From NCBI GenBank assembly GCA_016700375.1, contig CP065016.1:150001-182000 (forward strand): a stretch of DNA of 32,000 nt. The letters are read 5' to 3'. The notes under the pieces were generated by a model, which saw nothing but the letters and a program-made list of their open reading frames with translations, searched no databases and was not told the origin of the DNA. The translations under genes and the position numbers were made by a program. Origin of the DNA: Candidatus Saccharimonadota bacterium. Lineage in GTDB: Bacteria > Patescibacteriota > Saccharimonadia > Saccharimonadales > UBA4665. This document shows positions 4,264-21,189 of this stretch, piece by piece; within the stretch, counting starts at the first letter, position 1; each line of letters begins with the position of its first letter.

Positions 4264-4420
4264 TGGACGCTTCGCTTCAATTTTCATTTAGCAATTTTCA
4301 ATTAACAAAGAATTATCGATTGGCCATTAACAATGTAACTACAAATCGCACATTGCCAATCGCCAATTCATCGCGAATTGCCCATAGCCAATCGCTAATT
4401 TTTTCGAAAGGAGGCAACGC
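4264..4420 (+). repeat. intercistronic module (rpsN-rpsH), CAATTTT / GCCAATC units
   Basis: 157-nt spacer. CAATTTT-type units at 4278-4305 face AATTG/CCAAT-containing 7-mers at 4341-4400. SD GAAAGGAGG at 4406-4414. The pairing is less clean than in the other spacers. Confidence 0.55.
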
Positions 4421-4822
4421 ATGAGTACAACTACTACTGATCCTATCTCCGACATGCTAACTCGAATTCGCAACGCGATTGCAGTTGGAAAGACCGAAGT
4501 TAGCTTGCCACATAGCAAAATCAAAGAAAATGTCGCCATTAGCCTGCGCAATAACGGCTTCTTACATGATGTTAGCACCGAGGACCTCACCGTTGGTAAG
4601 CGTTTGCACATTACCATCAACCTAGAAGGTGAAAACGCTAAAATTACTGAGATTAAGCGTCTTAGCAAGCCGGGTCGTCGTTCTTACACGAACGCCCGCG
4701 AAGTGCCTCAGGTAAAACGCGGTCGCGGCGTGCTCATCATTTCGACTTCAAAAGGTCTTATGACCGGCGAAGAGGCCAAGCAACAAGGAGTTGGCGGAGA
4801 ACTAATCTGCCAGGTTTATTAG
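4421..4822 (+). CDS. rpsH: 30S ribosomal protein S8
   Basis: DPISDMLTRIRNA motif, at the expected operon position. Confidence 0.96.
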   Translation: MSTTTTDPISDMLTRIRNAIAVGKTEVSLPHSKIKENVAISLRNNGFLHDVSTEDLTVGKRLHITINLEGENAKITEIKRLSKPGRRSYTNAREVPQVKRGRGVLIISTSKGLMTGEEAKQQGVGGELICQVY

Positions 4823-19828: not shown

Positions 19829-19905
19829 GCCACCTTAGCTCAGTTGGCCAGAGCGGCTGTTTTGTAAACAGCGGGTCGTGGGTTCGAATCCCTCAGGTGG
19901 CTCCA
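19829..19905 (+). tRNA. tRNA-Thr (anticodon UGU), CCA encoded
   Basis: Cloverleaf read by hand: acceptor GCCACCT/AGGTGGC, anticodon stem GCTGT/ACAGC, loop TTTGTAA. The T stem has one U-U mismatch. Confidence 0.85.
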
Positions 19906-19917
19906 GTAAACGGTACA

Positions 19918-19947
19918 TTAACAATCGGTACTATACTCTGTTATAAT
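19918..19947 (+). promoter_or_regulatory. promoter of the PD-(D/E)XK ORF (leaderless arrangement)
   Basis: TTAACA, 18-nt spacer, TGtTATAAT (-10 at 19942-19947). The ATG lies 7 nt downstream and no SD is present. Confidence 0.55.
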
Positions 19948-19954
19948 AGCGGAC

Positions 19955-20371
19955 ATGCGACCTAAAGAGAAGGGTGATATTGCAATTGCTAAAGCTATTA
20001 ATTATTTCATGAGTTGTAATTTTGAAGTGTGTTTACCTATAGGTGATAAACGAGATTACGATTTGGTTGTTGAAAAAGAAGGGAAGCTGCAAAGAGTACA
20101 GGTGAAGTATGCTGGACTTTACCCTGGACAAAAAAGTTGTAAGGTGGCTCTTCGTATCACGGGAGGTAATCAATCGTTTCATTATAGTAAAAAGTATAGA
20201 GACGACGCATTCGAACTTCTTTTTGTATACACTGCAAAAGAACAGGAATTTGTCGTAAACTGGTCAGAGATAACTGCTAGGAATGAGTTATCCATTGAAC
20301 ATAAAAAGTATAATAAGTACCTCATAAACTCGAGCAGGGTTAGTGAAGCGGTCAAACACGATAGACTGTAA
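19955..20371 (+). CDS. PD-(D/E)XK nuclease, resembles the intron-homing endonuclease family typified by I-Ssp6803I
   Basis: KGDIAIAKAINYF..CLPIGDKRDYDLVVEKEGKLQRVQVK gives the D..(E/Q)xK core. About 33% GC by hand count of the first 118 nt. The last 12 codons overlap the 5' half of tRNA-Tyr, and the stop TAA is in its anticodon loop. Confidence 0.55.
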   Translation: MRPKEKGDIAIAKAINYFMSCNFEVCLPIGDKRDYDLVVEKEGKLQRVQVKYAGLYPGQKSCKVALRITGGNQSFHYSKKYRDDAFELLFVYTAKEQEFVVNWSEITARNELSIEHKKYNKYLINSSRVSEAVKHDRL

Positions 20372-20419
20372 ATCTATTGGCTTATGCCTTCGTAGGTTCG
20401 AATCCTACACCCTGCACCA
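20334..20419 (+). tRNA. tRNA-Tyr (anticodon GUA), long variable arm, CCA encoded
   Basis: Acceptor GCAGGGT/ACCCTGC, D arm GTG-AAGCGGTCAAA-CAC, anticodon loop CTGTAAA, variable stem GGC-TTAT-GCC, T arm GTAGG-TTCGAAT-CCTAC. Confidence 0.9.
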
Positions 20420-20439
20420 TTAATCACAAAGGGTTTGTT

Positions 20440-20628
20440 ATGGAATGCCCGATGTGTAAAAAACATATGCGTAAGGTACGCTGGGAAATCACAAACAACT
20501 TTAAAGTCGGTAGTGAGTTTGTAGAGTACAATAAAGTCACGTACCACTGCGAGGCTGAGGACATCTGGTTCAGTACAGAGTTGGCTATGCCAAAAAAGTC
20601 TTCGAGCTCATTAAAAAACAAATTATAA
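20440..20628 (+). CDS. small CxxC protein (62 aa), hypothetical
   Basis: MECPMCKKHMRKV...YHCEAED. The track ORF (20377) starts inside the tRNA; ATG 20440 is the first start downstream of the tRNA. AT-rich. Confidence 0.4.
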   Translation: MECPMCKKHMRKVRWEITNNFKVGSEFVEYNKVTYHCEAEDIWFSTELAMPKKSSSSLKNKL

Positions 20629-20639
20629 TAGGTACATAT

Positions 20640-20918
20640 GCCCCGATAGCTCAGTTGGTAGAGCGCATCCATGGTGAACCGCGTATGGTTTTGCCCACTT
20701 TGCAGGAAACTGTGCAAGTGAATCCCGAATAACGGTTAATATCCCTACGGGGACAAGACCGTGGCATTCTTTTTGAGAAGGCCCGAACGACTGACAAGGG
20801 AAGCTAAATTCGACAAAACACGAATATGCTTAAGATACAGTCTAGCCCTCATATATACATAAAAATGAGGTGTAAGCGAAGGATGAGGTCACGGGTTCGA
20901 ATCCCGTTTGGGGCTCCA
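20640..20918 (+). tRNA. tRNA-Thr (anticodon GGU) interrupted by a group I intron; CCA encoded
   Basis: The exons 20640-20675 and 20879-20918 join into a perfect 76-nt cloverleaf: acceptor GCCCCGA/TTGGGGC, anticodon stem CATCC/GGATG, loop AT-GGT-AA, T arm ACGGG-TTCGAAT-CCCGT. Confidence 0.85.
20676..20878 (+). ncRNA. group I intron (ORF-less, ~203 nt) inserted after U36
   Basis: The 5' exon ends in U and the intron ends in G. IGS UUGCC 20691-20695 pairs GCC with exon GGU and UU with 3'-exon AA. P2 20696-20720 has a GAAA loop. P4 is ACGGU/ACCGU, P5 is UCCC-UACG-GGGA, P6 is 20763-20783, P7 is GACUG 20789-93 / CAGUC 20838-42, and P8 is AUUCG/CGAAU. J8/7 AAGAUACAGUC matches the conserved group I S element, and P9 is CCUCAU/AUGAGG. 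Confidence 0.75.
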
Positions 20919-20930
20919 GAATTACAACTC

Positions 20931-20959
20931 TTGACAAAACACAAGCACTTTGATATGGT
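20931..20959 (+). promoter_or_regulatory. consensus-like promoter with no ORF behind it
   Basis: TTGACA (20931-20936), 17-nt spacer, TATGGT (20954-20959). Confidence 0.45.
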
Positions 20960-20965
20960 ACCTGT

Positions 20966-21155
20966 AGTAAGCGCTCCGGCGTTAAAAAACCGAAACACTT
21001 ACAAATTGTTGACCAAAGAGGAATGCGAAAAAAAGCAAACCAAATTGGCCATACCTCCGTAAACTATCGTTAGCCAAACTAGCGAACAAGTTTACCAAAA
21101 CCTCCTCAACACCCTAGGGTAAAAACACCGAGCTGATCACTCGGTGTTTTTGTTT
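20966..21155 (+). ncRNA. candidate ~190-nt small RNA (unknown family)
   Basis: Bounded by the promoter above and the terminator at 21121-21155, with no credible ORF or SD. It contains local hairpins (CGC-UCCG-GCG, CGUUAG-CCAAA-CUAGCG) and two CCUCC motifs (21054-21058, 21101-21105). Confidence 0.3.
21121..21155 (+). terminator. intrinsic terminator
   Basis: AAAAACACCGAG-CTGATCA-CTCGGTGTTTTT followed by GTTT. Confidence 0.7.
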
Positions 21156-21181
21156 ACATTTTCAGGCCTCTCTGTTAAAAT
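21153..21181 (+). promoter_or_regulatory. rpmG promoter (leaderless arrangement)
   Basis: TTTACA, 17-nt spacer, TGtTAAAAT (-10 at 21176-21181). The ATG lies 8 nt downstream and no SD is present. Confidence 0.55.
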
Positions 21182-21189
21182 AGTCTGAT

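Follow-up and report, generated by a model that had tools for sequence, protein, structure and literature searches.

A free-standing nuclease gene of the I-Ssp6803I family, docked at tRNA-Tyr in a Saccharimonadota genome, as a probable homing-type element

We analyzed a 32,000-nt stretch of a Candidatus Saccharimonadota bacterium genome (assembly GCA_016700375.1, contig CP065016.1, positions 150,001 to 182,000 of the forward strand), hereafter called the window, and concentrated on a 138-residue nuclease gene that lies within its cluster of three tRNA genes. A first-pass annotation, made from the sequence alone, had read this cluster in the order tRNA-Thr(UGU), tRNA-Tyr, tRNA-Thr(GGU), and ARAGORN and Rfam both recovered the first two tRNAs; the third is split. 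Coordinates are those of the window unless they are given with a locus label. Such labels (L001 to L144) denote comparison loci that carry a nuclease homolog or the syntenic TPR gene, plus phage loci. The nuclease unit and its two flanking tRNA genes comprise the following features, given here with the open reading frame (ORF) and promoter that they contain.

19829–19905, plus strand: tRNA-Thr(UGU), called by ARAGORN and Rfam; left neighbor of the cassette.
19907–20330 (424 nt), plus strand: nuclease cassette segment, replaced in L064 by an unrelated 123-nt spacer (window/L064 alignment).
19918–19947, plus strand: sigma-70-like promoter, TTAACA-18-(TG)TATAAT, found by promoter scan with 11/12 matches; ends 7 nt before the ATG.
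19922–19949, plus strand: conserved block that precedes nearly every homologous ORF; its 24-nt core, at 19924–19947, has the consensus AACAGCATTATACTCTGTTATAAT.
19955–20371, plus strand: 138-residue ORF, a free-standing PD-(D/E)XK nuclease gene of the I-Ssp6803I family (Pfam, phmmer, AlphaFold2/Foldseek).
20334–20419, plus strand: tRNA-Tyr(GUA), called by ARAGORN and Rfam; the gene to which the cassette is docked.

The 138-residue protein (NCBI protein IPP75_00895) matched Pfam family PF11645 (PDDEXK_5) over residues 1–115 with 69.7 bits (cutoff 26.1; E = 3.3e-19). With phmmer, it matched the sequence of I-Ssp6803I [Protein Data Bank (PDB) ID code 2OST] at E = 1e-6, with D36, Q49, and K51 aligned with YD...VQVK. 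We built an AlphaFold2 model on 27 homologs (pLDDT 83.7, pTM 0.79) and compared it with the PDB using Foldseek; 2OST chains A–D occupied ranks 1–4 and were the sole strong matches (TM 0.62–0.71, best E 7e-9). D8, D36, Q49, and K51 are invariant across 27 homologs that are 57–77% identical to the window protein, and residues of this type reportedly make up the catalytic set. The active site, defined as an acidic residue on β-strand 2, QxK on β-strand 3, and an acidic residue in helix 1, is retained. The PADLOC model “HEase” (homing endonuclease) also matched the protein (E 2e-9), as did phrog_5018, a phage family of unknown function (E 7e-21), and some of the homologs are labeled “group I intron-associated PD-(D/E)XK endonuclease” by NCBI. 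NCBIfam returned no match for the nuclease, for the 62-residue ORF that follows tRNA-Tyr, or for a family of ~200-residue ORFs from other loci, both described below. The profile search and the structural comparison bear out the family named in the first-pass annotation, and on sequence and model we assign the 138-residue ORF to the I-Ssp6803I-like PD-(D/E)XK family, with nuclease activity predicted.

The gene is free-standing, as had been claimed. It sits between two intact tRNA genes, Rfam found no ribozyme match around it, and the ORF lies inside an intron at none of 63 homologous loci. Its coordinates, its 38-nt run into tRNA-Tyr, and its stop within the anticodon loop were likewise confirmed: the final 12 codons and the stop come from tRNA-Tyr, and the TAA (20369–20371) is U35-A36-A37 of the tRNA. 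The significance attached to this stop did not hold up on comparison. Just 2 of 50 full-length ORFs, those of the window and L027, end in this way; most are 123–126 residues long and have a stop of their own, and the last ten residues of the window protein, which the tRNA gene encodes, are predicted to be disordered in the AlphaFold2 model. Because the ORF ends at the very edge of the cassette, the overlap appears to be a by-product and not a conserved design.

We assembled a set of close relatives by scanning metagenomes with the adjacent TPR protein, which yielded 80 loci with TPR proteins 74–100% identical. The nuclease gene is present in one of these 80 syntenic relatives (L142). At L064, the TPR and L33 proteins are 100% identical to those of the window, the TPR gene is 97.5% identical at the DNA level, and the gene order is tRNA-Thr(UGU), tRNA-Tyr, small ORF, tRNA-Thr(GGU), with neither nuclease nor intron. 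Homology between the two stops one base past the CCA of tRNA-Thr(UGU), at window position 19906, and resumes 2–3 nt before tRNA-Tyr. GC content is 36.9% for the nuclease ORF and 35.6% for the inserted segment vs. 48.4% for the window and 48.5% for the neighboring TPR gene. The nuclease cassette, which consists of the palindromic block with its promoter and of the ORF, is a foreign insertion of ~0.42 kb in the Thr(UGU)–Tyr spacer; the insertion and its AT-rich composition had both been proposed from the window, and the empty site in a near-identical strain and the GC values agree with them. The window and L064 form the only informative pair of occupied and empty sites, the other nuclease-bearing loci being too diverged from their nearest nuclease-less relatives. 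We searched both sides of the cassettes of Candidate Phyla Radiation (CPR) bacteria for a directly repeated tRNA-Tyr 5′ end, the signature of an insertion duplication, and no such repeat exceeded chance.

The left edge of the insertion is less sharp than the alignment implies. In its first ~20 nt (ACATTAACAATCGG), the inserted segment is similar to spacers native to relatives without the nuclease, which may place the true left junction near 19927–19932. A motif, TTAACAAT/TTTACAAT (window 19916–19932), occurs directly 3′ of tRNA-Thr in loci with the nuclease and in loci without it (e.g., L111, L069, L070, and L076), and the whole 17-nt spacer of L111, gcttaacaattcggtat, resembles this part of the window. 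Since the motif also occurs in nuclease-less loci, the −35 element of the nuclease gene may be native spacer rather than cassette. The promoter itself, first read as TTAACA-18-TGtTATAAT with the ATG 7 nt downstream, was found again by the scan, and because no Shine–Dalgarno sequence precedes the ATG, the mRNA is possibly leaderless.

The Thr–Tyr spacer holds other elements in nuclease-less loci. An element of ~100 nt, ...aaaagagcagccgga...gagaaaaacc..aggtttgtctca, is found in L065, L070, L073, L076, L079, L080, L097, L100, and L131, and a different conserved element of ~125 nt is found in L064 and L068; in further relatives, the spacer measures only 1–20 nt. Neither alternative element had a match in Rfam. 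This spacer is a hot spot that different elements occupy at different loci. We also observed stray tRNA fragments near the nuclease–tRNA-Tyr unit in L002 (~4634–4652), L044 (4585–4660), L054 (~4665 and ~4820), and L009 (3895–3916). They comprise tRNA-Tyr 3′ ends, half of a tRNA-Thr(UGU), and a second copy of a tRNA 3′ end together with its terminator, and the fragment in L002 agrees with the tRNA-Tyr of the window and not with L002’s own copy. Recurrent recombination or repair at the locus seems to have left these fragments behind.

A genome scan with the nuclease yielded 59 loci, almost all from Patescibacteria, and 63 distinct loci were collected overall. At 50 of the 63, a full-length ORF (123–138 residues) lies on the same strand as tRNA-Tyr(GUA) and ends between −38 and +30 nt relative to its 5′ end. 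Twenty of these docked ORFs overlap the tRNA gene (in classes −38, −32, −10, and −6), with the anticodon loop reached only in the window and L027. The docked loci come from Saccharibacteria, Paceibacterota, and Berkel-, Yonath-, Lipton-, and Daviesbacteria. At two further loci, L018 and L054, the ORF lies 5′ of a tRNA-Tyr interrupted by a group I intron, and five copies of the nuclease are degraded. The nuclease proteins are 55–70% identical across lineages whose neighboring genes diverge far more, and a patchy distribution of PF11645 suggestive of horizontal gene transfer has been noted before (PMC3424549). In addition, the pair of tRNA-Thr(UGU) and tRNA-Tyr is inverted relative to the TPR gene in some Saccharibacteria, namely at L003 and L005 (3057–3851), L007, L082, and L084; in the nuclease-bearing cases of this inversion, the ORF lies 47–54 nt from tRNA-Thr(GGU) (47 in L003 and L005, 54 in L007).

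Homologs in phages (a T5-like coliphage, a Vibrio phage, and a Bacillus phage) are 30–34% identical and end 0–14 nt before a tRNA gene inside tRNA clusters; the tRNAs that phage family members adjoin include tRNA-Ser and tRNA-Pro. Because the phage homologs also lie 5′ of tRNAs, docking at tRNA genes looks like a habit of the wider family. In one of them, L144 (Escherichia phage SelmaRatti), a 15-nt sequence, GGAAGAATACGTTAA, stands as a direct repeat on both sides of the homologous ORF (~2485–2500 and 2875–2889) and equals the first 15 nt of the tRNA-Ser gene directly downstream. This repeat suggests insertion into, or recombination at, the 5′ end of the tRNA gene.

The nuclease cassette has the hallmarks by which free-standing homing endonuclease genes are recognized: presence/absence polymorphism at one site, the same site used in unrelated hosts, a patchy distribution, foreign composition, and decaying copies. 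We therefore read the cassette as a free-standing homing-type element specialized on the tRNA-Tyr locus and assign this reading a probability of about 70%, judged from comparative sequence evidence.

We then examined the block upstream of the ORF and the tRNA-Tyr alleles beside it. The consensus AACAGCATTATACTCTGTTATAAT occurs once in the window and has inverted arms, ACAG and CTGT, 9 nt apart; its most conserved positions (CAG and TACTCTG) lie in what would be the promoter spacer, and in L011 the block is a perfect 23-bp palindrome. The anticodon arm of tRNA-Tyr, with its 5-bp stem and 7-nt loop, has the same arm spacing. We ran a weight matrix of the block on 61 nuclease-less loci, and in 22 of them the sequence that matched best within 200 nt of tRNA-Tyr was the reverse complement of the anticodon arm. 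Counting unique tRNA-Tyr alleles, 12 of 32 nuclease-less alleles but only 1 of 57 nuclease-linked ones scored above 5 bits against this matrix. NCAGA/TCTGN stems were found in 15 of 32 nuclease-less vs. 1 of 25 nuclease-linked alleles of syntenic Saccharibacteria (p = 3e-4), and an allele with an ATTGA stem appeared only beside the nuclease (12 of the 25 nuclease-linked alleles; none among the nuclease-less alleles listed).

The window and L064, the sole informative close pair and one uncontrolled for phylogeny, differ at 4 of 86 positions of tRNA-Tyr, which make up two compensatory pairs, and at 0 of 153 positions of the tRNA-Thr genes. The anticodon stem is ATAGA/TCTAT in the window and ACAGA/TCTGT in L064, and the T stem is GTAGG/CCTAC and GGAGG/CCTCC, respectively. 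Against the block matrix, the L064 anticodon arm scores +6.3 bits and the window arm −3.0 bits. In L018, where the intron splits a tRNA-Tyr with the stem CCTGA/TCAGG, the block carries its arms in exchanged order (CTG..CAGG), and these agree with that stem at seven of eight positions.

I-Ssp6803I is a tetramer that recognizes a pseudo-palindromic target in the anticodon region of a tRNA gene, given as 23 bp (PMC3384342) or 17 bp (PMC3424549). The resemblance of block and anticodon arm, the allele bias, and the arm swap in L018, combined with this published behavior, led us to propose a target and an immunity mechanism. The nuclease would cut tRNA-Tyr loci that lack it, most likely in the anticodon-arm DNA of NCAGA/TCTGN-stem alleles. 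Recombinational repair from a nuclease-bearing genome would then copy the cassette along with its tightly linked, resistant tRNA-Tyr allele, amounting to intronless homing with co-conversion. Resistance would be gained when a pair of the anticodon stem changes in compensatory fashion (here, C28:G42 to T:A), a change that would alter the two half-sites of a palindromic target together; two relatives (L018 and L054) might owe it instead to a group I intron in the anticodon loop. The upstream block, finally, would be a copy of the target that is not cleaved and serves as an operator. We consider this specific target and route to immunity a tentative proposal, somewhat more apt to fail than to stand. 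More speculative by a small step is the composite picture of a two-part gene drive on an essential tRNA gene, in which a cutter of palindromic arms would be joined to an immune allele or intron and to an autoregulating promoter copy, within a tRNA-specialized family that includes phage members.

Several observations weigh against these readings. Where the Thr–Tyr pair is inverted and the nuclease is present (L003, L005, and L007), the ORF faces tRNA-Thr(GGU) instead, and the copy in the window, which has no stop codon of its own, could be decaying. The match between block and anticodon arm is modest, at 6–10 bits for NCAGA/TCTGN alleles vs. −1.5 ± 3.7 for the best hit in shuffles, and promoter function alone explains part of the block, which contains TGnTATAAT, an extended −10 element. 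The allele statistics are uncorrected for phylogeny and compare a narrow clade of nuclease-less loci with a broad set of nuclease-bearing ones. Finally, the nuclease of L042 adjoins a TCAGA/TCTGA stem, and the block of L054 fits its own stem on one arm only.

The first-pass annotation had linked the nuclease to an ORF-less intron in the next tRNA gene, ~270 bp away. By our measurement, the end of the nuclease ORF lies 268 nt from the split tRNA and 304 nt from the first base of the intron. The split gene consists of the following parts.

20640–20675, plus strand: 5′ exon of tRNA-Thr(GGU); its last base is U36.
20676–20878, plus strand: 203-nt ORF-less intervening sequence of group I architecture, exactly absent in L064.
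20879–20918, plus strand: 3′ exon of tRNA-Thr(GGU), with the CCA encoded.

The joined exons form a canonical 76-nt tRNA, and ARAGORN in intron mode also called the 203-nt intron. Rfam’s Intron_gpI model gave only a misplaced hit on 20676–20878 that, at 14.4 bits (E = 1.1), stayed below the gathering score of 50, and it did not detect the homologous tRNA-Thr(GGU) introns of L002, L039, and L049 at E ≤ 0.01. Because Rfam is blind to this intron, we identified it by comparison with the empty site and by helices derived by hand. L064 lacks exactly 20676–20878, and its exons are identical. The helices were drawn from five homologs: those of the window, L002, L039, and L049, and part of that of L025 (four full sequences). 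The U at the 5′ splice site pairs with a G of the guide sequence GCC, so that P1 is GGU/GCC with a U·G pair, and the terminal base of the intron is G. P1, P2 (with a GAAA loop), P5, P6, P8, and P9 fold in the homologs despite differing sequences, and P3, P4, P7, and J8/7 (AAGAUA-CAGUC) are invariant. On this small comparative base, we accept 20676–20878 as a compact group I intron, as the first-pass annotation had called it, with self-splicing predicted. The intron is a second mobile element, separate from the nuclease. Group I introns in tRNA genes of CPR genomes have been mentioned in passing (PMC8172020).

Could the nuclease act in trans with this intron by collaborative homing, a pathway established in phage and reviewed along with intronless homing (PMC3984707)? 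Both elements are present in the window, and both are absent from near-identical L064. All intron-bearing tRNA-Thr(GGU) loci that we sampled carry the nuclease (5 of 5), and the intron occurs in 0 of the 38 nuclease-less loci at which tRNA-Thr(GGU) was observed (Fisher p = 0.01, phylogeny uncontrolled); this count speaks against our own reading, since it leaves some link unexplained. However, the wider sample does not support the partnership. In ~50 loci, it is with tRNA-Tyr that the nuclease is associated, and at least 22 nuclease-bearing loci have a tRNA-Thr(GGU) without the intron. In five of the intron-less nuclease loci (L007, L016, L031, L032, and L035), the 17-nt anticodon arm of tRNA-Thr(GGU) equals the spliced arm of the window, and the distance and orientation of the nuclease relative to tRNA-Thr(GGU) vary (47 nt to >3.5 kb), whereas the distance to tRNA-Tyr is fixed. 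A nuclease that cut tRNA-Thr(GGU) would thus attack many of its own hosts, and we regard the partnership as improbable. The weak co-occurrence may instead have come about because both mobile elements are linked within a single tRNA cluster that is prone to recombination.

A different ORF family is docked at tRNA-Thr(GGU) in L001, L002, and L054, which also counts against the nuclease as the partner of that intron. This second family of ~195–200 residues, marked by the motif LGIGLYWGEG, is represented in L001 (6133–6735), L002 (5368–5952), L054 (4992–5591), and, as a partial copy, L114 (4793–4978); it was not found in the window. Its members always end at or over the 5′ end of tRNA-Thr(GGU), which carries an intron in L002 but not in L001 or L054. 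Their N terminus matches the DNA-binding module of phage PHROGs annotated as “HNH endonuclease,” and the rest of the protein had no Pfam or PDB match, so that no nuclease family could be assigned to them. Speculatively, they might be LAGLIDADG proteins. The ~200-residue ORFs may form a second type of free-standing homing gene that docks 5′ of a tRNA, and they may be better placed than the nuclease as the partner of the tRNA-Thr(GGU) intron.

A nuclease next to an intron-bearing tRNA does occur at two loci, with tRNA-Tyr as the host gene. L018 (4415–4613) and L054 (~4417–4616) have ORF-less group I introns between U35 and A36 of tRNA-Tyr, directly 3′ of the nuclease ORF; Intron_gpI scored 72.7 bits on the former and 45.7 bits on the latter, and both are of a different type from the tRNA-Thr(GGU) intron. 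By its gene order, this is a collaborative-homing arrangement, but with tRNA-Tyr.

We also considered that the nuclease might be domesticated, serving its host in defense, repair, or some role at the tRNA locus and kept by vertical inheritance and co-transcription rather than by selfish spread. Its position beside tRNA-Tyr is kept in several CPR lineages, its active-site residues are invariant, and similar PD-(D/E)XK domains occur in defense systems such as SPARDA, which gave weak fold matches to the nuclease model in Foldseek. Against this, the gene is absent in 79 of 80 close relatives, including a near-identical strain, its composition is foreign, and degraded copies exist. The PADLOC match is to a homing-endonuclease model and not to a defense effector, no partner genes are conserved, and the proteins remain far more alike across lineages than do their neighboring genes. 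A host function is accordingly a poor fit, and we give it little credence. The idea that the ORF is a relic, once housed within a tRNA-Tyr group I intron and stranded upstream by intron loss or rearrangement, can draw on the intron-encoded prototype I-Ssp6803I, the tRNA-Tyr introns of L018 and L054, and the NCBI name “group I intron-associated,” but it is the least credible of all, because the ORF lies within an intron at none of the 63 loci and outside it, 5′ of the entire tRNA, even in L018 and L054, no ribozyme remnants flank the window ORF (which has only 49 nt upstream and joins tRNA-Tyr directly, too little space to hold any), and the phage homologs are likewise free-standing and 5′ of tRNAs.

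Downstream of tRNA-Tyr lies the small ORF that the first-pass annotation had placed with the nuclease in a single AT-rich island, at the position where glyT would usually sit.

20440–20628, plus strand: conserved 62-residue small protein, MxCPxCxKxMRKVRWEITNNFK...C...DIW, with homologs in relatives.

Homologs of this ORF (34–82% identity) are present in L064 and at least eight other nuclease-less relatives, usually just after tRNA-Tyr. The single island does not survive this finding: from its distribution, the 62-residue ORF is a native small gene that lies outside the cassette and occurs with or without the nuclease. C3, P4, C6, C37, and W43 are invariant among the homologs, so that the cysteines of the proposed CxxC...HC motif (C3, C6, and C37) stand, and the His of its “HC” is not conserved. 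Family searches gave only weak, subthreshold matches. Related genomes run Thr–Tyr–Thr without any glyT, some with spacers of just 1–7 nt, and for this reason the glyT position is merely an analogy with Escherichia coli. Separately, the 3′ end of the 62-residue ORF and the ~30 nt before the 5′ exon of tRNA-Thr(GGU) (~20580–20639) diverge between the window and L064 far above their surroundings; an earlier insertion or deletion immediately 5′ of tRNA-Thr(GGU) may have left this trace.

Beyond the cluster, at 20931–21151, a promoter-like TTGACA-17-TATGGT is followed ~190 nt on by a perfect terminator hairpin (21121–21151), with no convincing ORF between them. Compared as a possible conserved RNA, the region 20920–21189 keeps only the terminator in relatives, and 20931–21151 is therefore probably not a conserved RNA gene.

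To our knowledge, free-standing homing endonucleases are well studied in phages and little documented in cellular chromosomes, and most of what is known of the PD-(D/E)XK homing family comes from a single cyanobacterial enzyme encoded in an intron. A literature search, which was not exhaustive, found no description of the tRNA-Tyr docking rule, the empty-site alleles, or the conserved block. The locus offers a minimal free-standing cassette, docked strictly and directly 5′ of tRNA-Tyr in many CPR lineages, together with natural occupied and empty alleles in near-identical strains. Such a system would allow tests of how a target is chosen or spared, whether tRNA stem changes or introns act as immunity, and how nucleases and ORF-less tRNA introns combine. 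The cassette also explains problems in the annotation of CPR genomes, including ORFs that extend into tRNA genes as well as split or fragmentary tRNAs, and the family offers compact new sequence-specific nucleases. If the gene-drive picture were true, homing endonucleases specialized on tRNA genes would form a class that influences, in CPR bacteria and phages alike, how tRNA stems evolve and how tRNA clusters are rearranged.

Four known systems bear comparison with the cassette. I-TevI is said to repress its own expression through an operator that resembles its homing site; similarly, the conserved palindromic block overlaps the promoter of the window nuclease and resembles the candidate target, although here the resemblance is statistical only and the operator role is putative. 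Collaborative, or trans, homing is exemplified by F-CphI and the cyanophage psbA intron (reviewed in PMC3984707). The window departs from it in that the adjacent tRNA-Tyr is intron-less, as in ~50 other loci, and the window’s intron sits in another tRNA and is not correlated with the nuclease as that model requires. In function, the nearest analogs are SegB of phages T4 and T6 and the collaborative and intronless homing pathways. SegB is, like the window nuclease, a free-standing endonuclease whose gene is set among tRNA genes; it causes its tRNA region to be inherited preferentially, and the 3′ end of T6 SegB abuts tRNA-Tyr (PMC13096335). However, SegB has the GIY-YIG fold, resides in a phage genome, and comes with no evidence of fixed docking at one tRNA across many lineages. 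The closest relation is to I-Ssp6803I (2OST), from the tRNA-fMet group I intron of Synechocystis, with which the nuclease shares PF11645, the fold (TM 0.71), the D...QxK pattern, and the association with a tRNA gene. The two proteins are ~26% identical; one is intron-borne, linked to tRNA-fMet, and cyanobacterial, and the other is free-standing 5′ of tRNA-Tyr in a CPR host. The window nuclease, therefore, clearly belongs to the I-Ssp6803I family, yet it is free-standing, unlike the prototype.

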